DNA of 64,000 nucleotides from an uncultured Acidobacteriaceae bacterium (GCA_963810955.1 CAWEPW010000043.1:37034-101033); one strand, 5' to 3'; counted from the stretch's first letter, positions 1 through 53,465 are shown. Notes: generated by a model not told the origin, from the sequence alone. Program-made: numbers and translations.

Positions 1-1537
1 CGAGCACAGGAATCTCTTTTGGCGCAAGCGCTCCCACGCGCAGAGCGCGCTTGGTCAGCACCACCCAAAGCAATCCCAACCCGTAAACCGCGCCTGCAAT
101 CAAAAGTTGCAGAGCCAGTTCCACGTAATGGTGCGGGATAAACCAGCTTTGCATCAGGAGAAGCGCGAACACCATCGGTATGCTGATGAGTATTGGCAGC
201 ACGTAGGCCTCGCGCAAGTAGGTGCTTACGCGAATCCCAAGTTGTTTGCACAAGTGCCCCGGCATAAAAAAGATCATGCTGACCGCCAGCGGAATGGCCG
301 TGCCGTAGGCGTCGCCCTCTATGGCTCGCTCCACCGATGTATGAATGAACAGGCGCACCAGAACGATGCTCAGAACCAGGTTGGCAATGCCTTCGGCGAG
401 CGTGACGAAGGCCCAAGTCTTGTGCTTGCTGATTCCGAAGAGCACTCGTCCAGAAGCCGCCTGCGCCCACATCAGTGTCGCTGGGATGATCAGGATCACG
501 AGCACCGGGTAGCTGGTGGCGATATATTTCTTCCCGACCCACACTTCAATAATCGACTTGCCCAGCACCAGCAAGGTCGCGGTAATGGGGAAACAGGTGA
601 AGGCGCACAAGCGGTTCCCGGCCACGAAAACTTTCCGCAGGCGGTCCATTTTCCCGGTCGCTTCCGACTCGCTGGCCAGGGGCAGAAAATTCTGCGCCAG
701 CGCCATCACCACCTGTTGCGTGTAATTCACGATGCGGGAGCCGATGGTGAAATACGTGATGGCGGCCGCCGAAATCATGCTGCCAATCACGATGTTGTCG
801 GTCTTGAACTTCAGTTGGGTCGCGATCATGATGATCAGCGTGACTCCGCTGTAGTTCGCCATCAGGTGGAAGGTTTCGCGGTCCACATATTTCATCCCAA
901 ACGGAACGGGACGAATGCGGAAAGCGATAACTCCCCGGACCAATGAATTAATAATAGGAAGAGCCACCGTAATGGCCGCCACGGTGAGCAACCCCTTGCC
1001 GTGGGTAAGAGCAGTTACGATCAGAACGACGCGAACGGCATTGCCCGCGACGCTCGTCCAGTTGTTAACGTAAAACATCTGCAGCCCATCCAGAAAACCG
1101 CCCACGACGCCGAGGGGGAAGCCGAGCGCAATTGCAACTCCGACCATCCACAGCAACAAGCGAGCGGTTGAATGGAAGCCCGGCGGAATCTTGAATAGGT
1201 TGTCGACGTAAATTCCGAGCACGGCCGTCACCATCAGACTCAGAACGCCGATGCAGCTATAGCTGAAGAAGCTGGTATTGATCAGCTTGGCCAGGTCTTC
1301 AATGTCGTCAACCGCGGTGAACTTCGAGACATAGCGGACTATCGAGGAACGGATTCCGAGATCGAACAGACCGTAGTATCCCGTGATCGTAAAAATCAAA
1401 ACCCAGATGCCGGATGCGGTATCGCCCAGTTTGTGCAGTATGAAGGGGTAGAGCAGGAAACCGACAACGACGTCGACGCCCAGGGAGAACCAACTGGAGC
1501 CGACGTTCTTCATGATTTGACGTTTGTTGATGCTCAT
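1..1537 (-). CDS. MOP/Wzx-type polysaccharide flippase; ATG at 1537, C-terminus runs past the window start (partial)
   Basis: Reverse-complement translation from the ATG at 1537 gives MSINKRQIMKNVGSSWFSLGVDVVVGFLLYPFILHKLGDTASGIWVLIFTITG..., a hydrophobic multi-TM protein with a Wzx-like N-terminus. The stop-free plus-strand shadow ORFs 107-946 and 516-725 are consistent with a long minus-strand ORF. The ORF track omits edge-truncated ORFs, so it is not listed. Confidence 0.55.
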   Translation of the reverse strand, partial: MSINKRQIMKNVGSSWFSLGVDVVVGFLLYPFILHKLGDTASGIWVLIFTITGYYGLFDLGIRSSIVRYVSKFTAVDDIEDLAKLINTSFFSYSCIGVLSLMVTAVLGIYVDNLFKIPPGFHSTARLLLWMVGVAIALGFPLGVVGGFLDGLQMFYVNNWTSVAGNAVRVVLIVTALTHGKGLLTVAAITVALPIINSLVRGVIAFRIRPVPFGMKYVDRETFHLMANYSGVTLIIMIATQLKFKTDNIVIGSMISAAAITYFTIGSRIVNYTQQVVMALAQNFLPLASESEATGKMDRLRKVFVAGNRLCAFTCFPITATLLVLGKSIIEVWVGKKYIATSYPVLVILIIPATLMWAQAASGRVLFGISKHKTWAFVTLAEGIANLVLSIVLVRLFIHTSVERAIEGDAYGTAIPLAVSMIFFMPGHLCKQLGIRVSTYLREAYVLPILISIPMVFALLLMQSWFIPHHYVELALQLLIAGAVYGLGLLWVVLTKRALRVGALAPKEIPVL

Positions 1538-1540
1538 TGC

Positions 1541-1612
1541 GCGAAACTCATTGGGCGAAACTCATCGGGCGAAACTCATTGCAGAAAACTCTGGGAGCAA
1601 CTCATTGGAAGC
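1541..1612. repeat. About 5 tandem copies of a 14-nt unit (GCGAAACTCATYGG); the minus-strand flippase start codon (..caATGAGCatc) is a degenerate copy
   Basis: Read directly: gcgaaactcattgg gcgaaactcatcgg gcgaaactcattgc agaaaactctggg agcaactcattgg. The tract lies between the sulfotransferase A stop (1689) and the flippase start (1537). Confidence 0.85.
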
Positions 1613-2567: not shown

Positions 2568-2656
2568 CAATTTGTAATTTGTGATTGGTAATTGGTAATT
2601 GGAACCCTTCGGTTTTGATCTCAAATTACCAATTACAAATTGCCAATTACAAATTT
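2568..2656. repeat. Palindromic element made of AATTACCAATTACAAATT-type units; two ~32-nt inverted arms around a ~22-nt loop. It fills the gap between sulfotransferases A and B
   Basis: caatttgtaatttgtgattggtaattggtaattgg...tctcaaattaccaattacaaattgccaattacaaattt. The arms are near-perfect reverse complements. Confidence 0.85.
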
Positions 2657-3519
2657 CTCCCGCTGCCGCTGAGAACTCCCAACGCATCGTTATCTCGCAC
2701 TTTCGCGGGAACCGTCGAACTCAACTCATATCCCAGGCGTTGCATCAGCGGTCCCCAAGCCGCTTCAATTCTCGCGGCCATGGGCGCGGGCAAATCGTTG
2801 CGCCATCCGCCCGAACCGGCCGCGCGTACAAACGATAGATCCTTGCGCGAGCCTTTCATCAGTTCATTTTTGTCTGGTTGCTTCTTTTCGAGTTTCCGCA
2901 TGCTATCGGCCGAACTTCGCTCCACAGCTTGAGCAATCAGCTCAGGGCTGGCCACGAGATGCAGAAACTCCACGACCTTGGTAAGTTCGCGGGCGGTATC
3001 AGCGACCAGATCTTCGTAGCGGAGCAGAAGGAACCGCGGACTTCCCTCGCTCGTGTAAAGCCAGGTGGCAACGTTCTGTCCCCATGAACCGTGGGGACAG
3101 GTTTCCCCGGCCATAAAGCGGGTGACAAATTTCTCGATCGGCGAGTCATCGTCGAGTTTTCTAAGCTTGCGATGATAGTGGTATTGCGAGACGACGACAT
3201 CGCGCGGGTCGCGAACGATATAAACTACGAGAGGATAGCGGGGATCGAAGCACTCATGGCTTTTGATGATGCGCGGCCGCGTCATGCGGTCGAAGTCCCT
3301 TTTCGCGGTGCCCTCGGGGTCGGGAATCAGGCGATTGATGTTTTCGAAAGTCGCCGGCTGTTCGGGAAATCTGAGGTTAGCCAGGAGAAACCGCGTCCAG
3401 GTATTGCCCGACTTGGGAAAAGAAACGAGAAAAATGTCATCCGGAAGAATGAGCAGGCTGCGCGAAGGCCGGTGCAGGCCCAATCCGCGTTGTATGCCAG
3501 CCATCAGATGCTTGATCAT
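2647..3519 (-). CDS. PAPS-dependent sulfotransferase, paralog B
   Basis: MIKHLMAGIQ...FPKSGNTWTRFLLANL...IVRDPRDVVVSQYH...FVRAAGSGGW. Sulfotransferase-domain motifs present; 290 aa. Confidence 0.85.
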   Translation of the reverse strand: MIKHLMAGIQRGLGLHRPSRSLLILPDDIFLVSFPKSGNTWTRFLLANLRFPEQPATFENINRLIPDPEGTAKRDFDRMTRPRIIKSHECFDPRYPLVVYIVRDPRDVVVSQYHYHRKLRKLDDDSPIEKFVTRFMAGETCPHGSWGQNVATWLYTSEGSPRFLLLRYEDLVADTARELTKVVEFLHLVASPELIAQAVERSSADSMRKLEKKQPDKNELMKGSRKDLSFVRAAGSGGWRNDLPAPMAARIEAAWGPLMQRLGYELSSTVPAKVRDNDALGVLSGSGRNL

Positions 3520-3540
3520 TCTTCAATCCCCAAAACCTAT

Positions 3541-3646
3541 TTGTAATTGGTAATTTGTAATTGAAAGTCCGCCCGTCCAACCTTCAAAATCGTCCTCCCA
3601 CATCACGATTTTCAAATTACCAATTACAAATTACCAATTACAAATG
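3541..3646. repeat. Second copy of the palindromic TTGTAATTGGTAATT element, between sulfotransferases B and C, with a ~45-nt loop
   Basis: cctatttgtaattggtaatttgtaattgaaag...ttttcaaattaccaattacaaattaccaattacaaatg. On the minus strand the hairpin is followed by tttt and then the gene B start. Confidence 0.85.
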
Positions 3647-3648: not shown

Positions 3649-4506
3649 CTACAAATCTTCCAGTCCCGAATGCACCCTCCTGGCCCCTACCAGGTTCGAC
3701 GTGGACAATTCGTAGCCCATCTCGCGCATCAGGCCGCCCCATGCCGATTCAATTTGGGCGAGGCTTGCCTCGGACAACTCCGCCTTCCAACCGCCCGATT
3801 TGGCGGCGCGGACGAACGGTTTATCTTTTCGCGTCTCGCGCGTCGAGGACCACAGGTGCGCCTGCTTTTTCTCCAGCTCGCGCATCCGATCGGCGGAGCT
3901 CTGCTCTATGGCAAAAGCCAGGCGTTCTGGCGTGGCTGAGATTCCCAGGAAGCTTGCGATTCTTTCCATCTCGTCCATGGCCTGCGACTGCAGCGACTCG
4001 TATTTCACCAACAGAAATCGAGGATCGCGGCGGCGGGTATAAAACCACGACGCGGCGTTTTCAAACCACGTTCCCGACTGATGGTTCACTTCGCCGCGAA
4101 CGAAGCGCCCGACAAATTCCGTCACCGGAAAATCGTCCGGAATAGCCCGCCGTTTGATGTCGAAGTGATATTCCGACAGCACAACGTCGCGCGGATCGCG
4201 AACGATGTAGATCACTTTCGGATAGCGAGGATCGAAATATTGGTGGCTCTTGAGCAGGCGCGGGCGCGCTGCGCGCTCCAGATCCTTCTTCGCCATCGCC
4301 TCTGGATCAGGGACTAAATCATTAATATTCGAAAAATCGGGATTCTTTTCGGGATAGACCAGATTGGCAATGAGAAACCGCGTCCAGGTGTTGCCGGACT
4401 TGGGATAAGAAACCAGAAAGACGTCATCGGGAAAAACGTGCAAATTGCGGCCGGGCGGATGCAGACCGAAAAAGTATTTCCCTCCCGCGATCAAACGCTT
4501 AATCAT
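3649..4506 (-). CDS. PAPS-dependent sulfotransferase, paralog C (start taken at MIKRLIAGG by analogy with paralog B; the track ORF starts at 4557)
   Basis: FPDDVFLVSYPKSGNTWTRFLIANL, YIVRDPRDVVLSEYH, FVRAAKSGGW. Third tandem paralog on the same strand. Confidence 0.8.
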   Translation of the reverse strand: MIKRLIAGGKYFFGLHPPGRNLHVFPDDVFLVSYPKSGNTWTRFLIANLVYPEKNPDFSNINDLVPDPEAMAKKDLERAARPRLLKSHQYFDPRYPKVIYIVRDPRDVVLSEYHFDIKRRAIPDDFPVTEFVGRFVRGEVNHQSGTWFENAASWFYTRRRDPRFLLVKYESLQSQAMDEMERIASFLGISATPERLAFAIEQSSADRMRELEKKQAHLWSSTRETRKDKPFVRAAKSGGWKAELSEASLAQIESAWGGLMREMGYELSTSNLVGARRVHSGLEDL

Positions 4507-4602
4507 TGATGGTACCCAACCCTGGATGTAACCCGACCCCGACGCGACTAAACCCAAATTCCAGATGCAGACTCATGCTTATCCGTTTTCGATCCCAGGC
4601 GA

Positions 4603-5589
4603 TCAAGCCGTAGCTCCGTGGCGCATCCAACTCCAGAAAGACATGAGACGGCTAGTCGCTCCGGGCGCGATGCCCAAGCCAACGACCGCAAGGCTCAACA
4701 CCGCGCTATGCAAAAAACCGTTCGCTTCCGCAATCAACTCGCGCGCCTTGTCAAACTGGCGTTCTTCCAGCTTGCATTTGCCCTCTTCCAGCAGATAGCG
4801 GGCCCGAATCTCAGCGGCACGCTTTTCAACCACCGCGCGATCGGCGCCTTCGAGCGGCAAAGTTCGCAGGAACTTATCCAGAATACACCAGTAGGCTTCG
4901 GCCATTCTGGCCCGCGACACGCTGAGCGAACCGGGGCGGCCGATGAAGAGACGAGCCTGAACCGCGCGCCCATAGCTGATTTTCGCCCCGCTGTAGGCAG
5001 CCCGCACCCACATATCGTAATCGTCGCAGCGCGCCAGTTTTTCATCGAACAAGCCCGCGTCCATCAGACTCTTTTTTCGCGCTACCACGGTTGAAATCGG
5101 AATCTGGCAATCTTCCACGATCAAGGCGGCAAACGTAGCCTGACCATGGGACGGGCACTTCTCCATGAACGGCCTCTCGGTCGCCGGGTCGCCGACGAGA
5201 AGCGCGTTGGCATAGACCAGATCGAGCGCTGGATCGTCCGCGATCAGCTTCATCTGCGCCGCGAGGTGGTTCGGATACCAGCTGTCATCGCTGTCGAGAA
5301 AGGCTACGAACTCTCCGCGAGCCTGCCGAATGGCGTTGTTGCGCGCAGCGGCGGCGCGCTTGTTCTCCTGCTTGATGTAAACCAGCCGTTTCTCGCCGCT
5401 GATGTAAGGCTGCAAAACCTTCTCCAGTTCGGGCGTATCCGGCGATCCGTCGTTGACGACGATCGCCTCGAAATCCGCGTAGGTCTGCGCGAAAACGGAG
5501 TCGAGGCAAGCCGCGATCAAATCGGCGGTCTTATAGCTCGGGATGATCACGCTGACCCTGGGCGCCGGATTGGTTTCGGCTGCTGGCAT
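4603..5589 (-). CDS. Family 2 glycosyltransferase (GT-A fold)
   Basis: VSVIIPSYKTADLIAACLDSVFAQTYADFEAIVVNDGSPDT and a DSDD motif. 328 aa, intact. Confidence 0.8.
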   Translation of the reverse strand: MPAAETNPAPRVSVIIPSYKTADLIAACLDSVFAQTYADFEAIVVNDGSPDTPELEKVLQPYISGEKRLVYIKQENKRAAAARNNAIRQARGEFVAFLDSDDSWYPNHLAAQMKLIADDPALDLVYANALLVGDPATERPFMEKCPSHGQATFAALIVEDCQIPISTVVARKKSLMDAGLFDEKLARCDDYDMWVRAAYSGAKISYGRAVQARLFIGRPGSLSVSRARMAEAYWCILDKFLRTLPLEGADRAVVEKRAAEIRARYLLEEGKCKLEERQFDKARELIAEANGFLHSAVLSLAVVGLGIAPGATSRLMSFWSWMRHGATA

Positions 5590-5612: not shown

Positions 5613-5707
5613 ACCATCAGTCGTTGGTCATCAGTCGTCGGTCGTTAGTCGTCGGCAGACTCAGCTTGCGAACGACTAACGACTAACGACCGACGACCAG
5701 TGACTGA
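5613..5707. repeat. Inverted-repeat element built from heptad GTCGTYR repeats in the left arm and ACGACYR repeats in the right arm; lies between the glf stop and the GT2 start
   Basis: catcagtcgttggtcatcagtcgtcggtcgttagtcgtcggc...cgaacgactaacgactaacgaccgacgaccagtgactga. A second family member lies at 53345-53465. Confidence 0.75.
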
Positions 5708-5712: not shown

Positions 5713-7077
5713 CTACGAACTGTGAAACACCAGTTCCTTTTCTCCGGCGATGATGTTATTCGCCGCTTCCACGCCCATCATCACCGAGTGATCCATATTT
5801 CCGATTTCATAGCGCCACGCGCCAAAACGTCCGCGAGAATAAATACCTTTTTCGAGCAACGCCGGTTGCAACACCTCGAGCGCGCGGTCGCGGCCGAGCG
5901 TCGGGATCGGATACGAGTAGCCGACCGTTCGGTGATAACGCGAGACAATGCGCCCACGGTCCGATTCCTCCAGCATATTAGTCCGGATCAGTTCGGTGGT
6001 TACCTGATCAAGAATTTTTTCCGGGTCGGGCGTTTCTCCTACCCGGAATGACATTTCGCACATCAGCGAACTGTAGTGCTCGATATCGCCGTTCGGCACG
6101 TTGTTCGGCGAGTAATGCGAAAAATAGGTGGCGCGATAGCACGGCATCTGCGGGTCGGTGAAGTAAATCCAGCAGCGTCCGGTCTCTATCTTCTTCTTAA
6201 TGCCAAGGCCAACCACCAGAAGATTGTTGTGTTCGAGGCCCTGGGCGGCATCGAGCAGCCGGTTGTCGGCCGGCTTGATCATCTTCGTGAGCAGATCGAG
6301 CGGCGCGGTCGAGATCAGCAGATCGTAATTGTCGCCGGTGCCGTCGGCGAACGAAACCCGGCGTTTCTCCAGATCGACCTCGGCCAGCTTTTTGCCGGTA
6401 ATTATCTTCTTCGGAAAGTAGGCGGCCATGCGCCGGTAGATCTCGCCGGTTCCGCCGTGCAGCGGGAACTTGAACTTGTTGTTCGGACCCCAGGCCACAT
6501 CGTCGCGCTCATAAAGAACGTTTTCGAGCAGCCGTTTGAAATCTATCGCCGCCACGCGCTCGGCGATCCAGGTCTTCGACATCTGTTCGAGCGGAGTGGT
6601 CCACACCTTGGAGTTATAGGGAAACATGAATTCTTCGGCGATGCCCTCGCCCATGGTGGCCAGAATCCAGTCGCGAAAGTTTCCCGCCTCGCGTCCGCCG
6701 CCGTTCGATGCGGCTTTGGCCGCGCCGATGAGGCAACTGACCTGAACCTCTTTAGGCAAGTAGCGCAGATTGCTCTGAAACGGGTATGGAACCCACGATT
6801 CGCCTCTTACGATCCAGCTCTCGCGAATGCGCTCGTGAACTTCTTTGCCAAGAGCCTTGTCGATCAGCCGGTCGAAATAGGGATAGTGCGAAAAGATGAC
6901 GTGGCCGCCCTCATCCCAGACAAATCCATTCTTATCTACATGGGAAGTGGCGTGCCCGCCGACATACTCGGATTTCTCATAAAGAACCCAGTTATCGTAG
7001 CCCAGTTCATGGAGACGGTAGGCCGCGCCCAGTCCGGTCGGTCCTGCTCCGATAATGACAATTTTCTTGCTCGCCAT
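5713..7077 (-). CDS. glf: UDP-galactopyranose mutase, eukaryotic-type (~450-500 aa class)
   Basis: IIGAGPTGLGAA Rossmann motif. GGHVIFSHYPYFD, WVPYPFQSNLRYLPKE, CYRATYFSHYSPNN and SRGRFGAWRYEIGNMDHS closely match the conserved blocks of fungal and kinetoplastid UGMs (recalled sequence, not a database search). Confidence 0.75.
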   Translation of the reverse strand: MASKKIVIIGAGPTGLGAAYRLHELGYDNWVLYEKSEYVGGHATSHVDKNGFVWDEGGHVIFSHYPYFDRLIDKALGKEVHERIRESWIVRGESWVPYPFQSNLRYLPKEVQVSCLIGAAKAASNGGGREAGNFRDWILATMGEGIAEEFMFPYNSKVWTTPLEQMSKTWIAERVAAIDFKRLLENVLYERDDVAWGPNNKFKFPLHGGTGEIYRRMAAYFPKKIITGKKLAEVDLEKRRVSFADGTGDNYDLLISTAPLDLLTKMIKPADNRLLDAAQGLEHNNLLVVGLGIKKKIETGRCWIYFTDPQMPCYRATYFSHYSPNNVPNGDIEHYSSLMCEMSFRVGETPDPEKILDQVTTELIRTNMLEESDRGRIVSRYHRTVGYSYPIPTLGRDRALEVLQPALLEKGIYSRGRFGAWRYEIGNMDHSVMMGVEAANNIIAGEKELVFHSS

Positions 7078-7196: not shown

Positions 7197-8114
7197 ATGC
7201 GGACCAGCATCTCCTAATCGGACATCGAATCGAACATCGGCATGACCGCTCTGAGTTTCCGAAGAAATCTTTGCAGGAGAACCAAATTGTAGCATAGGGT
7301 TTTTGCCCTTCCTGTGTGCCGAAAGTAACCGTGGATTAACGAAAATGCGCCGTCTGCCGCTGCATCTCAGCGCTTCCCGTCTTGCTGCGGCTTGGTGCTC
7401 CGCAAAGCACAGCCGCAGGCGGAAATCGTATCCCTTCAGCGGCTAGACAAACAACGAACGGAGGAAAAAGAGGAGGGAAAATAAAATCAGCCTTACTAGC
7501 GAAACCGGCATCTCTTAAGCGAACCGCTTATTTCGTGCGCCAACGGATTTCGGAGCCAACCTTGTCGGCGCAACCTTCGGCTCGCCGGTGCAAATAGTTA
7601 CTTATGATTACTTATTCCGAGGGCAGGTACTGCCGGCTGATCGGCCAACTGCTAGAATCACGTACTTAAGTGTTGCAGAATTTCATTGATTTTGGAGGCT
7701 TTTTCGTTGGGCCGATCAAGTCGAAGCGGTTCCACCATTAATTCCCAATCCGGGATGAATATCGCAACTTTTTTCACTTCGGTCGAGACTGTCCGCGACC
7801 GCAGGAACTAGTGAGTTGATCACACAATGATTTCATTATCTTACGATGAAAGATTCGTCGAATTTCGGAAGTCGAATTGCTCGCTAAATCACACGGAAGA
7901 CTTATTGACGTACGCCTGATTGACACAATGCCTGAAACATCTACTGCCTAGAGCTAGTTTACCCAATCGGACGTGACCAGTGCGTCCAGGGTGAGGAAGG
8001 AATTTTGGGATGAGGCCCAGCGATACCGATAACAAGCAGAAACACAAATTTGAAGTCGACATTGCCCTGAAATCGGAAGGGAATGCTGCCGCAAACACCG
8101 GGAGGAATAAGGAC

Positions 8115-9858
8115 TTGACCGCTTCAGGTAGCCATCTGATCGCCCCGCATGGGGGAGAACTGGTTCAGCTGCAAGTGCCGGCCGCGCGCGCCGCGGAGTT
8201 GAAGGCGCACTCGAAAGATTGGCCTTCGTGGGACCTGACCGCCCGGCAGCTTTGCGATCTGGAATTGTTGACCAGCGGCGGCTTTTCTCCGCTGCGCGGG
8301 TTTATGAATCGCGCCGATTACGAAGGCGTGTGCCACAACATGCGCCTGGCGAACGGCACACTTTGGCCGATGCCGATCACTCTCGACGTCAGTGAAGAAT
8401 TTGCCAAGAAACTGACCCCCGGTTCGAGCAAAATCGCGCTGCGCGATCCCGAAGGCGTGATGCTCGCCGTGCTCAACGTTGAAGACGTCTGGCAACCGGA
8501 CCGCAAGAGTGAAGCTCAATCCGTCTTTGGTTCCACCAGCGCCGCGCACCCGGGTGCGGACTACGCGATCAACAAGTCGCATCCGTGGTACGTGGGCGGA
8601 ACGATCGAAGAGTTGCAGGCTCCGTCGCACTACGATTTCCGCGCCCTGCGCCTGACTCCGGCCGACCTGCGTGCCGAGTTCCGCCGCCTGGGTTGGACCA
8701 CCGTCGTAGCCTTCCAGACGCGTAATCCCATGCATCGCGCCCACGTCGAGCTGACCATGCGCGCCGCCAAGCAAGTCGAGGCGAATCTGCTCATCCATCC
8801 TTCGGTCGGCATGACCAAGCCCGGCGACGTGGACTATTTCGTCCGCACCCGCTGCTACGAGCTGCTGCTGGCCAAGTATCCGCACGGCACAGTAAAGCTC
8901 TCGATGCTGCCGCTTGCCATGCGCATGGGCGGGCCGCGCGAAGCGCTGTGGCATGGCTTGATCCGCAAGAATCATGGCTGCACTCATTTCATCGTCGGCC
9001 GCGATCATGCCGGACCGGGCAAAGACACCGATGGCAGGAACTTCTACGGACCTTACGATGCCCAGGAACTATTCAAGAAACATCAGGAAGAAATGGGCGT
9101 CAAGATGGTTCCTTTCCAGATGATGGTTTATCTGCAGAATGAAGACCGTTATGTGCCTTCAGACGAAGTCCCACAGGGCGCGAAGGTCCTCGACATTTCA
9201 GGAACGGAATTGCGTCAACGCCTCAACGAGGGCCGTGATATTCCCGCTTGGTTTACCTATCCCGAAGTGGTGCAGGAATTGCGCCGCAGCTATCCGCCAC
9301 GCCACAAACAGGGCGTCACGATTTTCTTTACCGGTCTTTCGGGCTCGGGCAAGTCGACGATCGCCAACGCCCTGATCACGAAGTTCCTGGAGATGGGCGG
9401 ACGTCCCAGTCACTCTGCTCGACGGCGACCTGGTGCGCAAGAACCTGTCGTCGGAATTGGGCTTCTCGAAGGAGCATCGCGACATCAACATTCGCCGCAT
9501 CGGCTACGTCGCTTCCGAAATCACCAAGAACGGCGGCATCGCCATCTGCGCCCCCATCGCTCCTTACCAGGCGACGCGCAAGGCGGTGCGGCAGATGATT
9601 GAGCCTTTCGGCGGCTTCATCCTAGTGCACGCGGCTACGTCGATCGAAGTCTGCGAACAGCGCGATCGCAAGGGCCTCTACGCCAAGGCGCGAGCCGGCA
9701 TTGTCAAGGAATTCACCGGCATCTCCGATCCTTATGAGGCACCTGCCGATGCCGAAGTGGTCATCGATACTGCTAAGCTGACTCCCGAAGAAGCCGCCCA
9801 GACCATTATTTTGCACCTGGAGCGCGAGGGCTTTGTCGGGGCCAACGGCAACGGATAG
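8115..9858 (+). CDS. sat/cysC: Bifunctional sulfate adenylyltransferase (Sat-type ATP sulfurylase) with a C-terminal APS kinase domain (PAPS synthase). The reading frame is interrupted by a +1 indel near 9405-9410. The likely start is TTG at 8115, preceded by GGAGGA; the track ORF starts at 8010
   Basis: [24 protein letters not shown] and GRDHAGPG are ATP sulfurylase motifs. The C-terminal [22 protein letters not shown]-loop continues after the shift in frame 9433-9858 ([30 protein letters not shown]...). One extra nucleotide in cgtcccagtcact separates the two frames. Confidence 0.8.
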
Positions 9859-10144
9859 TTATCCATCCCGGTTCCCCAGTCCGCTGTTTCAACGACTTAT
9901 CGTTACTCCGGACTGGGAAGCCGGGGCTCGCTCCGGAAGGCTGCCAGCGAAGTCAATAAAGTCTATCGTTACAGTTGGCTTTATGGGATAATAACCCCGG
10001 AGAGCGGCTTCCCGTGCCGATTTTCAGTTTCTCGGTTCCTTAACATTGTTCTGCTAAACAGGATCTCGCGAAGCAGATTTTGCTAAGCAATGTTTCGCGT
10101 CACCGGGAATTGAGAAGCCGGAACTAAAGCTCTCGAAACACCGC

Positions 10145-10915
10145 ATGGAATTCTTGCTGCTAAAAGTACTGATCGGCTTCTGCGTCGGAACGCTGATCGG
10201 CTTAACGGGTCTGGGCGGCGGCGTATTGCTTTTGCCCATGCTCATCTTTGGCCTGCACATCCCCGCCATCATCGCCGTCGGCAGCGACGCGATGTTCAAC
10301 TTCTTCACCAAGATTCCCGCCAGCATCATGCACATCTGGCGGGGCACGGTGCGGAGAAAAGTCGTGCTCGCCATGGCCATCGGCAGCATGCCCGGCTCCT
10401 ATCTCGGCGTAACTTTTCTCGTGCACCTGCGCCACGTTTACGGCAACCACGTCAACGATTTCATCAAATCCGCGGTAGGGTTATTGCTCGTCTTAATTCC
10501 CACCCTGCTGATGTTTCAGGGCCGGATCGAGGACCATCTAGCCGGCCGCACGCCGACCATGAAGTCATTCGCCTTCATGAGCGTAATCGGACTTACCGGC
10601 GGATTCCTGGTGGGCATCACCTCGGTCGGCTCGGGCAGCATCATCATGATGTTGCTTCTTTTGTTTTATTCCTTCCCTCCCAAGATCATGGTCGGCACCG
10701 ACATTGCCCATGCCGTGCTTCTCACCGGCGTGACCAGTCTGTTGCACTGGCGGGCAGGCAACGTTGACGGGCATCTGGTCGGAGCATTGCTCATCGGGTC
10801 GATTCCCGGCGGAATGCTTGGCTCGTATCTGACTACGCGTGTCCCGGTACTGTGGCTGCGGCGAATCCTGTGCACCGTCTTGCTGATCACCGGAGCGCGC
10901 ATGTTGTGGGTGTAA
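10145..10915 (+). CDS. TauE/SafE (DUF81) family anion permease; a candidate sulfate or sulfite transporter by context
   Basis: 256 aa polytopic membrane protein with two halves each carrying GxGGG-like motifs (LTGLGGGVLLLP and ITSVGSGSIIMM). It sits between sat-cysC and cysQ. Confidence 0.7.
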   Translation: MEFLLLKVLIGFCVGTLIGLTGLGGGVLLLPMLIFGLHIPAIIAVGSDAMFNFFTKIPASIMHIWRGTVRRKVVLAMAIGSMPGSYLGVTFLVHLRHVYGNHVNDFIKSAVGLLLVLIPTLLMFQGRIEDHLAGRTPTMKSFAFMSVIGLTGGFLVGITSVGSGSIIMMLLLLFYSFPPKIMVGTDIAHAVLLTGVTSLLHWRAGNVDGHLVGALLIGSIPGGMLGSYLTTRVPVLWLRRILCTVLLITGARMLWV

Positions 10916-10920
10916 GAAAC

Positions 10921-10996
10921 ATTGAATCATTTTGACATTGAGTCATTAATGAATAATTCAATGCCTCAATGCCTCAATGATTCAATGACTCAATAG
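10921..10996. repeat. AT-rich tract of ~8-nt tandem repeats (CAATGMYT) in the 5' region of cysQ
   Basis: caatgcct caatgcct caatgatt caatgact caatagcc, preceded by ttgaatc attttgac attgagtc. Local GC is far below the genome background. Confidence 0.75.
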
Positions 10997-11016
10997 CCGG
11001 CACTTACTATTTCTTC

Positions 11017-11841
11017 TTGGAGAACATCTTAGTGACTTCATCCGCAGAAACTCTGGAACGTATTCATGCCGCACTGGAAGCGGCTCGGGTTGTGCTGAAG
11101 GGCTTTACCCCCGGAGCCATCGAGGCCAAATTTAAAGTTGGCGACGATCCGGTCACGGCCGCCGACCGCGCCGTCGACGACGTTCTGCGCAAGACGCTGC
11201 TTCGTTCCGGCGAGGGTTGGCTCTCGGAAGAAACCGTCGACGATTTCAGCCGTCTCGACAAACAACGTGTATGGGTCGTCGATCCGCTCGATGGCACGCG
11301 CGAGTTCGTGCAAGGCATTCCCGAATTCTGTGTTTCCATCGCCATGGTGGAGAATGGAATTCCCGTCGCCGGAGGCATCTGCAATCCGGCGACCGACGAA
11401 CTCATACTGGGCTCGCGCGAAACCGGCGTAACCTACAATGGGAAGCCCGCGCAACCGAGCCAGCGCAAGGATCTCCACGGCGCGCTCGTCCTGGCCAGCC
11501 GCAGCGAAGTGAAGCGAGGCGAGTGGAAGCAGTTCGAATCGGCCGAGTTCAACATTCGCCCCATGGGATCGGTCGCCTACAAGCTCGGACTGGTCGCCGC
11601 CGGCCGCGCCGATCTCACCTTCACCCTGGTTCCAAAAAATGAGTGGGACGTTGCCGCCGGCGCCGCGCTGGTCGAAAGCGCCGGAGGGTGGGTGCTGAAA
11701 CTCGACAATTCTCCCTTGCGCTGCAACCAGAAAAATCCGCTGATCTCCGGCCTCCTGGCCGGTAGCCCATTCCTGCGCGCTCCATTGCTCGCCATGCTCG
11801 ACCGCCACTCCCAGACCGTCGGAGCGGACAAGCAAGTCTGA
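11017..11841 (+). CDS. cysQ: 3'(2'),5'-bisphosphate nucleotidase CysQ (inositol monophosphatase family). Start may be the GTG at 11032, which has a GGAGA upstream
   Basis: WVVDPLDGTREF and WDVAAGAALV metal-binding motifs; 274 aa. Confidence 0.8.
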   Translation: MENILVTSSAETLERIHAALEAARVVLKGFTPGAIEAKFKVGDDPVTAADRAVDDVLRKTLLRSGEGWLSEETVDDFSRLDKQRVWVVDPLDGTREFVQGIPEFCVSIAMVENGIPVAGGICNPATDELILGSRETGVTYNGKPAQPSQRKDLHGALVLASRSEVKRGEWKQFESAEFNIRPMGSVAYKLGLVAAGRADLTFTLVPKNEWDVAAGAALVESAGGWVLKLDNSPLRCNQKNPLISGLLAGSPFLRAPLLAMLDRHSQTVGADKQV

Positions 11842-12166
11842 CGCACTTACCAGCGCGTACGCACAATCTTGTCGCCACCGAACCGGACTGACGCCGGCGA
11901 ACAAAAAGCGCAATCGCTCGCTTCGCGTCACATTTTGCAAGCCAACCATTGGCCCCAGGATTCCCGATTTCGTCCCCCTATCGGCCGAAAACCCCCGTCC
12001 CACGGCTGTTTTCAGCTTATCTTTAGAAACCAGCGGACACTAGCCGCCGCGAATCGGTACATTAAGTTCCTGACCTGAGGATATCTAGGAAGCTTCCATT
12101 TACCCGGTTAGATTGAGCCTGAGGACAATCGACTGTCCCCCAATTCAGTAGGGTCGAGGGCTCATA

Positions 12167-14100
12167 ATGTTGCATGCAGAAAATGTACTTATAAGAAGCT
12201 ATTCTCCGTTTTCCGCTGCGCTCTTGCAGCGTCTTAGTCTTCTTACAATCCTGGCACTCACACTCACAACCATTCTCTCCGCCGAGACGCCGCATGGAAC
12301 TGCGATCCGTGGAACGGAGATACATGTAAGGGTAGGCGGAACGTCGGCGCAAGGTCCCGGCACAGACGGTGACAGTGGTTACGATGGCCCGGCGCAGCTG
12401 CCAATGGCCACCGTTGCCAGTTCCATGGCCGACACACCGGCGCCCGGCGCAATCATCAATGTCAATGCGGGCGGCGATCTCCAAACCGCCTTGAACACTG
12501 CCCAATGCGGCGACACGCTCGAACTGGAGGCCGGCGCAACTTTCACGGGATACTTCAGCTTTCCGGCTAAGGCATGCGATAACGAGCACTGGATCATTGT
12601 TCGAACGAGCGCGCTTGACACCGATCTTCCCGCCGAAGGTCAGCGCTTGACGCCTTGCTATGCGGGCGTGGCCTCACTGCCGGGGCGTCCACAATATACC
12701 TGCAACAACCCGCAGAATGTTCTCGCGAAGATCGTGAGTGCGGGGACTAGCGCGAGTCCGGTCACCTTCGCTTCCGGAGCGAATCACTATCGCCTCTTGG
12801 GCCTCGAAATCACGCGGCCGAGCGGAGTCGCGGGGTCGCCAGCGCTGGTCATAGTAATAAGAAAAGGCAACGCCGATCACATAGTTCTGGATCGCAGCTG
12901 GTTGCACGGGACAGCGGACGATGAAACCAGGTCTGGTATCTCTGTCGTCGGTGCGAGTTACGTGGCGGTCGTGGATTCGACCTTCACAAACTTTCAATGC
13001 ACCTCCAAGACCGGCACGTGCACGGATTCCCACGCAGTGGTTGGAGGCAATGGGGATCATCCAGGATGGTCCCTTCTTGATCCAAGACAACTTCCTGGAA
13101 GCTGCAGGAGAAGAAATTCTATTCGGCGGCGGCGCGGCCACCACGACTCCCTCCGACATCACCATCAGCTCCAATCACTTCTTCAAGCCATGGCAGTGGA
13201 TGCCCGGAAGCAAGCCCTTCCAGGGTGGAAAGGGCGGCCATCCATTCATTGTCAAGAACCACCTGGAACTGAAGAATGCTACACGGGTGCTGGCAGAAGC
13301 CAACCTGATGGAAGACGTCTGGGGAGGTTTCAGCCAGCAAGGCTTCGCAATCGTCCTCACTCCGAGCAACCAGCCTAGTCAAACAAAACCCATCGTCGAC
13401 ATGTGCCCGACCTGCGAGGTCACCGACGTGACCATCCGTTATACCCACATCATGCATGCGGGAGGGGGGATCGTTATGGCGACCCCCATTTCCGGACATG
13501 GCAAGAATGAAGGCGGAGCAGCCGCCAAGGAAGGAGCTCGCTGGAGCGTTCACGACGTGGTCTTCGATGACATCAGCCAGGGTTACACCGGCGAGGGTAG
13601 GTTGTTTTACCTGGCGAACGGCTGGCCGACGAACCCGGTGAACACCGTCACGATCAATCACATTACCGGATTCTCCGATGTAAAAGGCGGCTTTATGCTC
13701 ACGGGAAATAACCCGCCCAATCAGGAGATGTACGGCTTAGTCTTCACTAACAATATTGTCACCACCGGAGTTCACCCGATGTGGTCTGCAGAGGGTGGCG
13801 ATACCAGTTGTGCGAAATCAGATGTCCCGGTCACCGTTCTGAGCAACTGCTTCAAGACATTCACCTTCAACTATAACGCCCTCCTGGGGACGACTTCCAG
13901 TTTTGGACCAGGAACCTGGCCGGATCGGCAATATGTTCGGTCCGAGCCCCGGCGTTACCGCGTTTGCCGCATATAAGAACGGCAACGGTGGAAACTATCA
14001 GCTTCCCGCGAACAGCCCCTATAAGAATGCCGGGAGCGACGGCAAGGATCTGGGGGCCGACATCGTCGGACTCACCAAGGCTTTGGCCGGAGTCGAGTAA
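12167..14100 (+). CDS. Secreted right-handed parallel beta-helix protein (putative polysaccharide lyase or depolymerase), paralog 1. Spread over three frames (12167-13378, 12921-13976, 13903-14100), so either two frameshifts or a pseudogene
   Basis: Colinear with the intact paralog 17210-19069 (CGDTLELEAGATF, LPGRPQYT, TGTCTDS..GGNGD, ILFGGGA, FKPWQWMPG, WGGFSQQGF, CEVTDVTIRYT, C-terminal DLGADIVGL..LAGVE). Frame changes fall near 13050 and 13900. Confidence 0.6.
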
Positions 14101-14134
14101 GTTCTAGTTCGAAAGTGTTTATTTTGGAGAATGC

Positions 14135-14162
14135 TAGCGCCAAGGTCTGCGGTTCGCCGCGG
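14135..14162. terminator. GC-rich hairpin (12-bp stem, ttcg loop) between convergent genes; candidate bidirectional terminator with no clear U-tract
   Basis: caaggtctgcgg ttcg ccgcggaccttg. Confidence 0.35.
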
Positions 14163-14173
14163 ACCTTGTTCTG

Positions 14174-15363
14174 CTAGCCAGCCGGAGGACGCGTTCCCAG
14201 CTGATCAAGTTCTATCCGTGACGGAATGGCGCGCCCATGTCGCAGCGCCTGGTAGACCCACGCAAACAATGCTGAATTGATCATGCAAAAATAGTAAGGG
14301 AGCCGCAGAACTTTGGGCTTGAGGCTAGCCATAGCGCCCAGTACAGCGAGCCCATAGAAGAGCACTTGCCCGAGCAACAACCAGTCGTAAGGGAATTGTC
14401 CGCGCAAAGCGATATTCGCTCCAAGCGCGATGAGCATAAAGATGGGCACCAGCAGCCGCCCGGTTTTGTGAGAGAGCAAACAGAAGAGGACAAACGGCCG
14501 CGGCGGCCAGATCAGCCCTTTGATCTCCCGCAATTGTTCGATGTTGCCGGCCGTGATTCGCACGCGGCGGGAGAATCCCTCCATTTCATGAGCCTCTTCA
14601 TAGGCCACGGCTGCCGGTTCGTAGGCCACGCGATGTCCCTGTTCAACAATGCGCATCGGAATCGTGAAGTCGTCGTTGATGGTGTTGAGCGGCGGAAATG
14701 GATAAAGCGCGCGACGAATGGCATAAAGAGATCCGTGCGCGCCAGTAAATGCGCCGAGCTTGGCCTCTTGCACTTTCAGGAAAGTTTCATATTTCCAGTA
14801 GAGATCTTCTTGCGACCCAAGGTGGGCCTGATCTTTCTTCAGGAGCCGGTAAACTCCGCTGGCCGCGCCCACCCGCGCATCGTTGAAACTCTGCACCAGC
14901 ACGCGGAGAGAGTCGGCGGCCAACATGCTGGAAGCGTCGGAGAACGCTACGATGTCTCCGCGCAATTCGGGCACGGCATCGTTAAGAACCGCCATCTTTC
15001 CGCGATTCTTCTCATAATTGAGCAGGCGAATTCGTCCGTCGCTTCCGGTGTCGCTTCGTTTTCGCTTTTATAAAATGACCGCACAATTTCAGCCGTGGCA
15101 TCCTTCGACCCATCCGATGCGACCACGATTTCCAGCTTGTCGGCCGGGTAGTCAAGCGCAAGACTGTTGCGGATTTTGTCCGCGATAACAGCGGCTTCGT
15201 TGTAGGCGGCCACCAGCAGCGAAACGGACGGCTCAATCGGCTCCCGGCGCGGCGCGGCGCGAACCACACCCTGCAGCAGCCACAGCAGAATCGGATAACC
15301 GGCGTAGACGTAGACCGTAACCCCCGCCGAAATCCAGAACAGAAGCCTGGTCGTCATTAGCAA
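14174..15363 (-). CDS. Membrane-embedded family 2 glycosyltransferase (synthase-like, with TM segments at both ends). Split into two frames by an indel near 15040-15075
   Basis: N-terminal part (14947-15363): TM helix then LLVAAYNEAAVIADKI...LEIVVASDGSKDATAEIV. C-terminal part (14174-14995): NYEKNRGKMAVLNDAV..DIVAFSDASS..QEDLYWKYE..TGAHGSLYAIRR followed by several TM helices. Confidence 0.65.
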
Positions 15364-15370
15364 TACTGCC

Positions 15371-16056
15371 TTAGATGGCCGTAGACCGGATGCAATGCAG
15401 TTGCCCGAGAATCTCGTGCGAATCGATGCGGAATCCGGCGCGCTTCAAATAGTCTTCCGCCTGCGCCTGCGTGAAGAAATAGACCGGGCAGCCGTCCGCC
15501 TTGAGGCGCACCTTGCGAATCGATGCGCGCAGAGTCGCGGCGCGCGGCCATGCCGACAAGAAACGTCTTCTTCGTAATTCCGCGGATCACCTGCAATCTC
15601 GGCAACGGGTCGGCCACGTAATCCCAGAATCCGATCGCAATCACCTGATCGAACTTCTGGTCCGTCTTCCAGTCGAGCACATCGCTGAGCACGAACTTGC
15701 AGCGATCCGCGACACCCTTCTTTTTCCACCAGTTGCTGACTCAACCTCAGCATCTCCGGAGCAAAGTCCAGGCCGGTAACCTGCGCGCCGCGTTTGGCCA
15801 GCGTCGCGACAAAGCGTCCCGAACCGCAGCCGACGTCGCAGATCGTCATGCCGTTCAAGTCAGGGGACGGGCCTGATTCGCGCATGACCCACTCGTAGCG
15901 CTGGTAAATGTCTTTTCTCAGCCATTTATCCAGGCCGCGGCCGATCGGGCCCTTGTTGCCTGTATAGATCGCGTCGAAATCGTTGGCGATGTCGTTCCAG
16001 TATTTCGCTATCTGCTCAGATTCGTCAGTTTTTGTTTTCGTGGCTGTTCCATTCAT
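15371..16056 (-). CDS. Class I SAM-dependent methyltransferase, spread across three frames (two frame changes near 15712 and 15545)
   Basis: ICDVGCGSGRFVATLAKRGAQVTGLDFAPEMLRLSQQLVEKEG in frame 1. ..FVLSDVLDWKTDQKFDQVIAIGFWDYVADPLPRLQVIRGITKKTFL in frame 2. CPVYFFTQAQAEDYLKRAGFRIDSHEILGQ in frame 3. Confidence 0.65.
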
Positions 16057-16918
16057 AGAAATCGAAATCCTTGGCCGTATCGGCGAGTCCGCTTTCGCGG
16101 AAGCTGGTGTAATTTCCTGCCTGCAGCACGCTCTGGAAACGATCGAGAGTGCTCGACAGGTTGGTGTAGTGACGTAGACGGGAGCTCAGACGGCCCGGCA
16201 ACCGCGGCTGTTCGGGGTCGATCTCCCAGGGATGAATGTAAATCACGATGGGCAAACCTTCTTTTTGCACGCTTTTCAATCCCAATCGTGTGTAGATTCG
16301 CGGCAGCAGCCGAAGATAGCCGCCTCCGCCGACTGGCATATTGTGTCCAGCCAGGCGAAACGTGGTGATGGGAAACTCCGTCATGGGTCCCGAAGGCGTT
16401 TGAAAACGAAACGGAGCCCTCGGCGCGCCGGGCATCCCATAGCGGTCATGATGGATGGGAAAAATACTCGAGTCGTAGGTGAATCCAAGCTCGGTCAGGA
16501 TATCCAGCGCCCAAACCGAACGGTCGATCACAGAATAGGTAGGTGCACGATAACCGGTGACCGGTTGGCCGCCGATTTGCTCAATAATGTCCTTGGCGCG
16601 CCTAGTATCTTCCTTGAAATCAGCAGGTTCCAGCTTATATATCAACCGGTGCCAATAGGAATGGCAGGCCAACTCATGTCCACCTGCCGCAATCTCACGT
16701 ACCAATGCCGGAAACCGCTCCGCCACCCATCCCAGAACGAAAAACGTTCCCTGAATGTTGAGCCTAGCCATTAACTCCAATAGCCGCCGCGTGTTCGGTT
16801 CCACGCGGCTCGTATAGCTATCCCAGCGAGCGCGATCAACCACATCGGAAAAGGCTTCGGCGTGGAAATAGTCTTCCACATCCACCGACACCACATTTCT
16901 GAGTATTTTCTCTGACAT
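16025..16918 (-). CDS. Polysaccharide deacetylase family protein of the PEP-CTERM/exosortase-locus subtype
   Basis: NVVSVDVEDYFHAEAF N-terminal signature, ...GTFFVLGWVAERFP..ACHSYWH. 297 aa, intact. Confidence 0.7.
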   Translation of the reverse strand: MSEKILRNVVSVDVEDYFHAEAFSDVVDRARWDSYTSRVEPNTRRLLELMARLNIQGTFFVLGWVAERFPALVREIAAGGHELACHSYWHRLIYKLEPADFKEDTRRAKDIIEQIGGQPVTGYRAPTYSVIDRSVWALDILTELGFTYDSSIFPIHHDRYGMPGAPRAPFRFQTPSGPMTEFPITTFRLAGHNMPVGGGGYLRLLPRIYTRLGLKSVQKEGLPIVIYIHPWEIDPEQPRLPGRLSSRLRHYTNLSSTLDRFQSVLQAGNYTSFRESGLADTAKDFDFYEWNSHENKN

Positions 16919-17060
16919 TCCCCGATGGATCGTCCGCGAAAGGATTTCTCTCTTAGTATCGCCCAGCCAGCGGACATTTGGAACGTAATTTTGCCGCTCG
17001 CCGCAAGAGCACAGTTACAAAAGTAAGCCCATCGAAATGTGCTTAAAGCAAGGCTTTTCC

Positions 17061-17089
17061 GCAATTCGCCTTCCTTCGTGGTCCTTAGT
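17061..17089. repeat. Three tandem copies of a 9-10-nt unit (TCCTTMGTGG) in the 5' region of beta-helix paralog 2
   Basis: tccttcgtgg tccttagtgg ccttagtgg. Confidence 0.75.
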
Positions 17090-17209
17090 GGCCTTAGTGG
17101 TGATGCTTTCGCGGACCGCTCCACAACCGCATGTTACTATCTGCTATCGCAGCTGCTGAGAATATCCTTCATTCCACCCACGGGACGTGCCGTTAGGAGA
17201 ACCAACACC

Positions 17210-19069: not shown

Positions 19070-19099
19070 TTGCCCGTGGTGGAATAATGCCCGTGTGGG

Positions 19100-19140
19100 G
19101 GCGGGGCTCTGCCCCGCCAAGACGGGGCGAAGCCCCCGTC
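19100..19140. terminator. Two adjacent GC-rich hairpins (ggcgggg..ccccgcc and gacgggg..ccccgtc) just after the paralog 2 stop; candidate terminator
   Basis: Read directly. They overlap the first ~45 nt of track ORF 19095-20288, which argues for a later start of that gene. Confidence 0.35.
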
Positions 19141-19241
19141 ACCACGCAATCCCAGGCCAAGACGATGCAGTAACTTCAGTAACCCTGTATTCACAGGGCT
19201 TTCAAACGGCTCCGATCATCCTGCATGTTAAGATTTTTCAG

Positions 19242-52591: not shown

Positions 52592-53341
52592 TCAGATCGA
52601 CTTCACCGGGATAGCCACCACATCCTCTACCAGCGCGACTTCCTTCTGCACGAACGGCTCGGCATATGTGACCCCGCCGAGCAAGCCGTAATAGCGGGCC
52701 ATGGATTCTATGCGCGCGCGAATTTCCTTTTGCGCGGGGAAGATTCCGCTGCCTGCTTCCTGGTCGGTGAATTGCGATTTGTAGGCCATGAGTGAGGCGA
52801 GGCGCGTCTCAAACTGGTCGGTAATGTCTACGACAAACGTAGGCCGCACGTCGCGGTAAAGGCTGGCATAAATAATTTTGAAGGGACGATGAGGCGCAGC
52901 CGAAGCCACTGTGGGATCGCTGAGGGCTGATGGCTGTTGGCTGACGGCTAACTTGGCAAGTCCCGACAAAAACGCCGCTTCATATCCGAGGATCGAGGCG
53001 GTGTAGTGATCGGGATGACGGCCCTCCCAGTAAGGGAGAATCAGCACCCGCGGCCGCTGTTCGCGCAGCACGCGAACGACTCTCAAGCGATTTTCCCAGG
53101 TATTTTCGACGCGCCCGTCGGGAATATCGAGCGCCTGGCGCCACGAAACTTTCAGGATGCGAGCCGCCTCAGCGGCTTCGCTGGCACGGTCTTCGGCGGT
53201 GCCGCGTGTTCCCATCTCGCCTTGCGTGAGGTCGAGGATGCCGGTGCGGTATCCGCGCTCGGCCATTTTAAGCAGGGTGCCGGCGCAGGTTTGTTCCACG
53301 TCGTCGCGGTGCGCGGCTAGGGCGAGAATGTCTATGGGCAT
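52592..53341 (-). CDS. PIG-L/LmbE family N-acetylglucosaminyl deacetylase (BshB1-like)
   Basis: ILALAAHRDDVEQTCAGTL..RVLILPYWEGRHPDH. Confidence 0.7.
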   Translation of the reverse strand: MPIDILALAAHRDDVEQTCAGTLLKMAERGYRTGILDLTQGEMGTRGTAEDRASEAAEAARILKVSWRQALDIPDGRVENTWENRLRVVRVLREQRPRVLILPYWEGRHPDHYTASILGYEAAFLSGLAKLAVSQQPSALSDPTVASAAPHRPFKIIYASLYRDVRPTFVVDITDQFETRLASLMAYKSQFTDQEAGSGIFPAQKEIRARIESMARYYGLLGGVTYAEPFVQKEVALVEDVVAIPVKSI

Positions 53342-53344: not shown

Positions 53345-53465
53345 AGCGTCGTTCGTCGTCAGTCTTTTGTCGTTCGCGCAGGTCTACCCATTGCAGGTCT
53401 GCTGTAGGTCTCAGAATTTTAGAATGCCAACGACTGACGACTAACGACCATCGACCAACGACCGC
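53345..53465. repeat. Inverted-repeat element with heptad GTCGTYR and ACGACYR arms around a core holding three AGGTCT repeats; second member of the family seen at 5613-5707
   Basis: gcgtcgttcgtcgtcagtcttttgtcgttcgcg caggtctaccc attg caggtctgctg taggtctca...ccaacgactgacgactaacgaccatcgaccaacgaccgc. Confidence 0.75.

Follow-up and report, generated by a model that had tools for sequence, protein, structure and literature searches.

In many bacterial genomes, no long simple repeats are as over-represented as those of heptanucleotides, and the question of their origin and role dates back to 1990 (PMC4679880, PMC4692102). Slippage has been proposed as the cause of the over-representation of heptamer simple sequence repeats (SSRs) in the intergenic DNA of many bacteria (PMC4679880, PMC4692102), and heptamers that abut start codons have been suggested to act in translation (PMC4679880; bioRxiv 10.1101/2022.06.06.494920). 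That they are in excess, prefer intergenic DNA and lie close to start codons has been described without being explained (PMC4679880, PMC4692102, bioRxiv 10.1101/2022.06.06.494920). In Beggiatoa, 169 direct sets of heptamers were counted against a single indirect one (PMC4679880). Here we describe heptamer arrays that occur as inverted pairs in the two gaps between three tandem sulfotransferase genes, A (1689-2564), B (2647-3519) and C (3649-4506), all on the minus strand of a 64,000-nucleotide stretch of DNA (the window) from an uncultured Acidobacteriaceae bacterium (GCA_963810955.1 CAWEPW010000043.1:37034-101033). These elements are a palindromic variant of a heptamer repeat class that is already known but poorly understood, and the literature searched contained no description of such elements in Acidobacteriota.

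The inverted repeats that a preliminary description of this DNA had placed in both gaps are present, and all three flanking genes carry the Sulfotransfer_1 domain, as it had assumed. Element 1, between genes B and A, has arms at 2569-2603 and 2621-2655, which are 35 nt long, 86% complementary and separated by a 17-nt loop; in an alternative register, the arms are 27 nt long and the loop 26 nt. Element 2, between genes C and B, has arms at 3539-3563 and 3621-3645, which are 25 nt long, 100% complementary and separated by a loop of 57 nt, or of 49 nt in the other register, where the right array gains one more unit from position 3613. The loops of 22 and 45 nt given earlier are replaced by these values. 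All four arms have a period of 7 with 3.6-4.9 copies (Tandem Repeats Finder), one array of each element being (KGTAATT)n and the array facing it (AATTACM)n. The arms are thus tandem and AT-rich, as had been stated, but the proposed unit of about 14 nt is in fact a heptamer in which G/T or C/A alternates at one position. The 15-mer used earlier to define the motif (TTGTAATTGGTAATT), searched with up to two mismatches, has ten matches in the window against 0.01 expected, and all of them fall within the two elements, in agreement with the claim that the motif occurs nowhere else in the 64 kb. The surroundings, which had been called GC-rich, have a GC content of about 56% over the window and of 41-45% locally, which corrects the earlier description.

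The minus-strand RNA is predicted to fold strongly, with a free energy of -31.8 kcal/mol for element 1 (z -4.56 versus shuffles) and -48.3 kcal/mol for element 2 (z -9.19); a search of the window against Rfam at gathering thresholds gave zero matches. On the mRNA, the 5' arm of element 1 (2621-2655, minus strand) is a G/T-rich array, hereafter K-array, with the sequence AATTTGTAATTGGCAATTTGTAATTGGTAATTTGA. It extends into gene B, so that the final three codons and the TAA stop (2647-2649) lie inside the arm; the elements do fill both gaps, as claimed, but element 1 also overlaps the end and the stop codon of gene B. The loop (2604-2620, minus strand) is homologous to the loops of orthologous elements (TTTGARATCAAAACCGAAGGGTTC), and the 3' arm (2569-2603, minus strand) is an A/C-rich array, hereafter M-array, ending in CCAATTACCAATTACCAATCACAAATTACAAATT, which is separated by 4 nt from the ATG of gene A (2562-2564) with no Shine-Dalgarno (SD) sequence between them. 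In element 2, the 5' arm (3613-3645, minus strand) is a K-array of 4.7 units that starts 3 nt past the TAG stop of sulfotransferase C (3649-3651), the loop (3564-3612, minus strand) is a unique sequence with small helices of its own, and the 3' arm (3539-3563, minus strand) is an M-array of 3.6 units. Between this arm and the ATG of gene B (3517-3519) there are 19 nt, which include an unpaired SD-like motif, GGGGA. The UUUU reported 3' of element 2 (AAAUAGGUUUUGGGGAUUGAAGAAUG) is also present, 5 nt past the element. In the short-read contig of a 98%-identical strain (L212), element 1 is the same but for 1 nt. That contig stops inside element 2 (its positions 1-30), and heptamer hairpins appear to break short-read assemblies.

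The architecture described above defines a class of intergenic heptamer-repeat palindromes in the Terriglobales (Acidobacteriota), which consist of a 5' G/T-rich array of 7-nt units, a unique spacer and a complementary A/C-rich 3' array. Hairpins were surveyed in 571 kb of Terriglobales DNA, comprising the window and related loci, a sample biased toward the sulfotransferase gaps. Among the 35 long hairpins detected, the arms are strongly self-periodic in 26, and period 7 is the peak in every one of the 26. The G/T-rich array forms the 5' arm in 25 of 30 hairpins with period 7 or 8, a property that reads alike on both strands, and this polarity is held by all elements of the three unit families (Fam1, Fam2 and Fam3) in Terriglobales. 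Relative to the coding sequences, the upstream stop codon lies within the 5' array or at most 6 nt away from it; a 21-nt stretch of the K-array has a TAA in each of the three frames, and in 8 of 10 elements located between genes C and B the stop codon is supplied by the first unit (TAATTGG or TGATTGG). The M-array is free of G and ends 0-20 nt 5' of the next start codon.

The behaviour of the class at a single site was followed in 91 related loci. Homologs of sulfotransferase B come from Terriglobales metagenome-assembled genomes (MAGs) and from metagenomes of peat and forest soil. The three paralogs share only 49-54% identity with one another, and the order glycosyltransferase family 2 (GT2)-C-B-A recurs in dozens of loci of the Terriglobales, from which it follows that the triplication is ancient. 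Across the loci, the C-B and B-A gaps vary greatly: at one extreme, the genes overlap by 4 nt or are 6-30 nt apart, and at the other, gaps of 65-160 nt hold strong hairpins. The sulfotransferase triple is present without any elements in lineages with gaps of 12 and 26 nt or with a 4-nt overlap. Three unit families occupy the B-A gap. Fam1 (KGTAATT) is found in the window and in L132, L121, L138, L139, L126-128, L152, L156 and L172/173; Fam2 (AGGTCTC/AGGTGTC) in L146, L151, L176/178 and L148, and also in L133, L155 and L183, where the open reading frame (ORF) of gene B runs into the hairpin and ends at a TGA in the 3' arm; and Fam3 (GTCGTYR) in L144, L149 and L150. Decayed remnants of Fam1 are left in L137, L169 and L177, and all other loci have short spacers. 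One of these spacers, that of L122 (TAAACAAATCGCCGATTAACAATTCGACAATG), is an internal deletion in which a mini-palindrome and a degenerate 3' array remain. The states of the B-A element are patchy on a neighbour-joining tree of gene B, which indicates repeated loss and replacement. At least three unit families thus replace one another at one orthologous intercistronic site, and the class has repeatedly been lost or has decayed there and has no connection with how the sulfotransferase triplication arose.

The comparison of the window with its Fam1 orthologs shows that the B-A element has been retained over long periods. Its identity to the orthologous elements is 69-89%, which is above that of the fourfold-degenerate sites of gene B (40-61%); the corresponding values are 51-71% for the C-B element and 28-54% for the spacer between GT2 and gene C. 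The loops of the B-A elements are recognisably homologous among orthologs, and the B-A element is therefore old and vertically inherited.

Outside the sulfotransferase genes the class is widespread. In a scan for AATTACMAATTACMAATTAC with one genome per species, at least 120 loci were found, mostly in filamentous cyanobacteria among the matches listed, and 108 of the 120 listed are one-directional arrays without an inverted partner. Hairpin forms of the AATTACM motif occur, among the matches listed, in Terriglobales, Acidobacteriaceae, Anaerolineae, Caldilineales and others. In the Acidobacteriaceae MAG L048, the nuoE-nuoF and nuoF-nuoG gaps of the NADH dehydrogenase operon are filled by Fam1 hairpins, and hairpins in the nuo gaps also occur elsewhere in the Terriglobales (L213-L221), among other places on the contig that bears the sulfotransferase locus L127. 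Further Fam1 hairpins sit between convergent genes, and small ORFs adjoining heptamer arrays in other phyla include the ribosomal proteins L16, L22, L6 and S19. Since the motif occurs in the nuo operon, in convergent gaps and near ribosomal-protein genes, it is not tied to the sulfotransferases. The class is dispersed in Terriglobales operons, among them the sulfated exopolysaccharide (EPS) locus, nuo and others; the preliminary description had considered a motif restricted to the sulfotransferases and had named a dispersed repeat as the contrary case, and it is a dispersed repeat that was found in related genomes.

The nuo operon holds a related arrangement on a larger scale. A gene for a PF05635 protein (23S rRNA intervening sequence protein, a four-helix bundle) is located between nuoD and nuoE in Terriglobales (L048 4783-5330, minus strand; L213-L224), flanked by a K-array on the nuoD side, past the stop codon, and by an M-array on the nuoE side, ahead of the ATG, and this arrangement is kept across 73-100% protein identity. 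The two arrays are predicted to pair across the PF05635 ORF of about 360 nt, with energies of -17 to -33 kcal/mol compared with -7 to -17 kcal/mol for shuffles, and the nuo arrays of L221 show a compensated unit variant. L048 also carries a partial duplicate of the K-array together with the first 40 nt of the PF05635 gene. A general association between PF05635 and the arrays was considered and is unsupported by a small test: tblastn detected no more homologs in 1.4 Mb of collected loci and none in the window, every close homolog is an ortholog located at the nuoD-nuoE junction and none is a scattered copy, and PF05635 accounts for only one of 35 small ORFs adjoining AATTACM arrays in other taxa.

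We consider, with moderate confidence, that the window elements belong to a Terriglobales class of heptamer palindromes that are co-transcribed intercistronic stem-loops similar to repetitive extragenic palindromic (REP) sequences, that arise by slippage, that keep the stop and start codons together, and that probably couple or modulate translation or mRNA processing. On the DNA, the arrays would arise and stay symmetrical through 7-nt replication slippage together with palindrome (template-switch) correction, and they would persist where the harm is small. Co-transcribed with the operon, they would fold into AU-rich stems of 25-35 bp, the base of which would juxtapose the upstream stop codon and the downstream start codon. 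In element 1, the outer stem would sequester the SD-less, A/C-rich leader of gene A and would be melted by a ribosome terminating on gene B, so that the translation of A would stay coupled to that of B. Judging by the length of mRNA that the channel of the ribosome is known to cover, a ribosome with the TAA in its A site would have unwound the 35-nt arm over roughly its outer 18 nt, which would free gene A from position -4 to about -22. In the element-free orthologs, stop and start are 6-27 nt apart, and the same coupling would be expected; at element 2, coupling would be weaker, because the stem leaves the SD-like motif free in any case. Effects like those of REP sequences could be added to this, such as slowed termination, a barrier to 3' exonucleases or cleavage by RNase III, any of which might lead to unequal expression of the paralogs. 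SD-like motifs were found in only about 14 of 40 window genes (about 35%, a crude estimate), and accessibility of the leader therefore probably matters in this organism. The ACAAUUAC repeats of the tobacco mosaic virus (TMV) omega leader act as an SD-independent enhancer and were considered as a possible analogue of the M-array.

A coupling or modulating role of the hairpins in translation or mRNA processing is probable, but a number of points weigh against this explanation. This role is inferred, as are co-transcription, folding in vivo and coupling. The B-A element has been lost and not replaced in L122-125 and L145 and is decaying in L137, L169 and L177, which means that any function is dispensable. 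The polarity is not absolute either, as there are exceptions at L076 660-802, at L040 4218-4295 and at three long-spacer loci from other phyla. The high identity of the arms could result from low repeat complexity rather than from constraint. Ongoing slippage is not shown by the one near-identical strain (98%), in which no copy-number polymorphism was found. Finally, the stems in the sense orientation contain 756 Watson-Crick pairs, 19 G:U pairs, 27 A:C mismatches and 34 other mismatches, and owing to the absence of an excess of G:U over A:C (19 vs 27, p=0.30), selection on mRNA structure is not demonstrated. In most orthologs, foreign arms are paired as well as the own partner, which was the better one in 4 of 12 and 8 of 16 cases.

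On the other hand, in the diverged variants L133, L139 and L174 the two arms match each other much better than they match foreign arms, which means that changes have been compensated. RNAalifold detected no consensus stem in the B-A alignment because heptamer arms pair in several registers, and for this reason tests that do not depend on the register were used, namely the types of mismatch and the comparison of own with foreign arms. Template-switch correction of quasipalindromes is an established mechanism, and the evidence from the sequences fits a symmetry of the arms that would be maintained on the DNA itself, such correction being one way to achieve this. Weak structural selection on the stems could still operate alongside it.

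Other explanations have to be weighed against the favoured one. It is possible, although we regard it as unlikely, that these are selfish or neutral mobile palindromes, comparable to miniature inverted-repeat transposable elements (MITEs), REPINs (paired REP sequences) or intervening sequences (IVSs), which an unnamed enzyme would place beside stop codons and which would survive where they are harmless, with no function for the host. The same family at unrelated loci in several phyla, three families at one site across lineages, the patchy distribution on the tree with frequent loss and decay, and stem mismatches without G:U bias would all be expected of such elements, and the nuo PF05635 gene between its K- and M-arrays mirrors the Coxiella IVS, a selfish stem-loop with an ORF of this type (PMC4990558). 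However, the loops are unrelated between loci, so there is no conserved internal sequence like that of MITEs, and a comparison of filled with short-spacer orthologs, among which there is no clean recent empty site, revealed no target-site duplication. A Pfam scan of about 35 window ORFs detected no transposase, a single one of the 35 arrays examined in other taxa has PF05635 beside it, and the B-A element and its loop are vertically inherited and conserved above neutral sites.

Processing by RNase III, in which the long AU-rich duplexes would be cut and the cistrons split into mRNAs of differing stability, has a rather low probability in our judgement. Near-perfect stems of 25-35 bp are long enough for RNase III, and those of the elements have this length and quality. 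The nuo K- and M-arrays furthermore enclose an S23p-type ORF in the manner of the 23S IVS that is excised by RNase III (PMC4990558). Against this, the stems carry no strand-specific (G:U) signature and the elements are dispensable in sister lineages.

A more far-reaching proposal, which we think improbable, is that period-7 palindromes constitute a distinct and undescribed bacterial element with a dedicated mechanism of generation or propagation, for example templated, telomere-like addition of repeats at both 3' ends of a break, that they are processed by RNase III in the way of 23S IVSs, and that the PF05635 protein (S23p/Avd-like), whose gene some of them have in the loop, is a possible partner in trans. 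The near-uniform polarity and the fixed unit length across unrelated units would speak for a dedicated mechanism rather than ordinary slippage, and if it were true, it would explain the heptamer excess in cyanobacteria, Bacteroidota, Beggiatoaceae and Acidobacteriota.

Two further alternatives are very improbable. The first is that the hairpins are intrinsic terminators or attenuators between the paralogs, as the preliminary description had suggested. The hairpins are strong, and UUUU follows element 2 after 5 nt. However, the stems of 25-35 bp are AU-rich and there is no U-tract at element 1 or at the orthologous elements, unlike in a Rho-independent terminator, which has a G+C-rich stem and directly after it a U-tract; a consensus terminator and promoter scan called no terminator at the elements and returned nothing meaningful. 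The elements lie in the interior of a conserved operon in which the corresponding gaps of relatives measure -4 to 30 nt, and the same hairpins occur inside the nuo operon. An RNA-level role of another kind, such as processing or coupling, is still possible. The second alternative is that the arrays are phase-variable contingency repeats, in which changes in heptamer copy number would switch the expression of surface-polysaccharide genes. The location in an envelope or EPS locus, the slippage-prone nature of SSRs of this kind (PMC4679880) and the variation of unit numbers between orthologs and between arms are consistent with it, but the unit number is the same in the 98%-identical strain, the arrays are short (3-5 units) and interrupted, and the same elements are present in housekeeping operons.

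Least credible, and already contradicted, are the proposals that the elements are operators for a regulator dedicated to the sulfotransferases or recombinogenic repeats that drove the triplication, for although the window holds the motif nowhere but in these two gaps, it recurs in nuo, in other operons and at unrelated loci, other unit families substitute for it in the B-A gap, and the paralogs, at 49-54% identity, exist as a triple where there are no elements and the gaps are 12 and 26 nt or a 4-nt overlap.

The window also contains other repeats, some of them in the operon that hosts the two elements. At its left end, the window has genes on the minus strand only; in the order of the transcript, they encode an amine oxidase (5713-7077), a GT2 glycosyltransferase (4603-5589), the sulfotransferases C, B and A and a Polysacc_synt flippase (1-1536). 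Between the stop of the amine oxidase (5713) and the start of GT2 (5589) lies a Fam3 hairpin (GTCGTYR/YRACGAC; 5617-5707, minus strand), which is also found in L156 (392-463) and not in L121. A second Fam3 heptamer hairpin (53348-53460, minus strand) is located between an ABC-2 permease stop (53468) and a PIG-L start (53341), and a hairpin with 8-nt tandem units CATTGANT (10920-10987, no strand assigned) lies between convergent genes, 5 nt past the stop of TauE. A single unpaired array, (AGCCNTC)5, is present at 52915-52949 on the minus strand, inside the ORF 52592-53341 just past the PIG-L domain, where the true end of the gene is uncertain.

A 14-nt tandem repeat precedes the flippase start (1533-1607, minus strand) and is not present in the ortholog L121; on the sense strand it reads as a relay of five-codon mini-ORFs (ATG AGT TTC GCC CNA TGA), in which every TGA overlaps the following ATG and the final ATG is the flippase start. 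The spacer between GT2 and sulfotransferase C (4507-4602, minus strand) carries runs of G on the sense strand (GGG..GGGG..GGG..GGG..GGG), and orthologous spacers have GGGGTTN-like units (L121 2685-2761, L133 and L161). Judged by these runs, the region upstream of gene C may form a G-quadruplex. Further along the window, positions 8010-20288 hold a sulfated-polysaccharide locus with genes for 3'-phosphoadenosine 5'-phosphosulfate (PAPS) synthesis, a TauE exporter, glycosyltransferases, a methyltransferase and a polysaccharide deacetylase, as well as a fourth sulfotransferase, of the Sulfotransfer_3 type (19095-20288). Three window genes are split by frameshifts, namely the bifunctional ATP sulfurylase/adenosine 5'-phosphosulfate (APS) kinase (8010-9858), a GT2 glycosyltransferase (14174-15363) and MutL (27481-29585). 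These are probably assembly indels and not pseudogenes; if MutL were truly broken, more repeat slippage would be expected.

The heptamer question becomes tractable in the Terriglobales loci, where hairpins of one and the same repeat class occupy defined sites between cistrons. A single orthologous position offers natural "knock-outs", copies in decay and exchanges among three families, and such a series allows tests of whether the arrays act in translation coupling, in RNA processing or are tolerated by-products of replication. Annotation is affected as well, since ORFs may take their stop codons from the 5' arrays and be lengthened or truncated by them.

Several described systems resemble the elements in part. 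REP sequences and the related BIMEs (bacterial interspersed mosaic elements) and REPINs of enterobacteria and pseudomonads are likewise short imperfect palindromes, intergenic within operons and near stop codons. REP elements are present in many copies, are transcribed and affect mRNA stability and translation termination; they depend on REP-associated tyrosine transposases (RAYTs) and on a conserved sequence, and their arms are not tandem repeats. The arms of the window elements are tandem repeats, and no RAYT or other transposase was detected among the roughly 35 window ORFs scanned with Pfam. The Correia elements of Neisseria are short, have terminal inverted repeats and are co-transcribed with flanking genes, and their stems are cut by RNase III. 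In MITEs, including the Correia elements, the copies share internal sequence and target-site duplications, whereas the loops described here are locus-specific and no duplication was seen between filled and short-spacer orthologs. The IVSs of 23S rRNA with an S23p (PF05635) ORF share the long stem, but an ORF in the loop is found only at the nuoD-nuoE junction of relatives; the window elements are not in rRNA, their loops (17-57 nt) are without an ORF, and a heptamer stem is not a described feature of IVSs, of which that of Coxiella is excised by RNase III (PMC4990558). With the translational coupling by hairpins known from the phage MS2 coat-replicase junction and from ribosomal-protein operons, the elements share a downstream initiation region that would be sequestered and an upstream ribosome that would unwind it; coupling is experimentally established in those systems, while here the geometry suggests it.

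The closest kind are the heptanucleotide SSRs and short tandemly repeated repetitive (STRR) sequences, represented by the STRRs of Calothrix and Nostoc, GGGAATC in Xanthomonas and TAACTGA in Beggiatoaceae. In common with these, the arrays described here consist of tandem 7-nt units in at least three copies, are intergenic, often abut start codons and are dispersed (PMC4679880, PMC4692102), the dispersal being seen in this case in related genomes. The unit AATTACM of the window elements is identical to one that is abundant in filamentous cyanobacteria. The difference lies in their arrangement and host: the cyanobacterial arrays are mostly direct, whereas in this acidobacterium of 56% GC the same heptamers form inverted hairpin pairs, mostly of one polarity.

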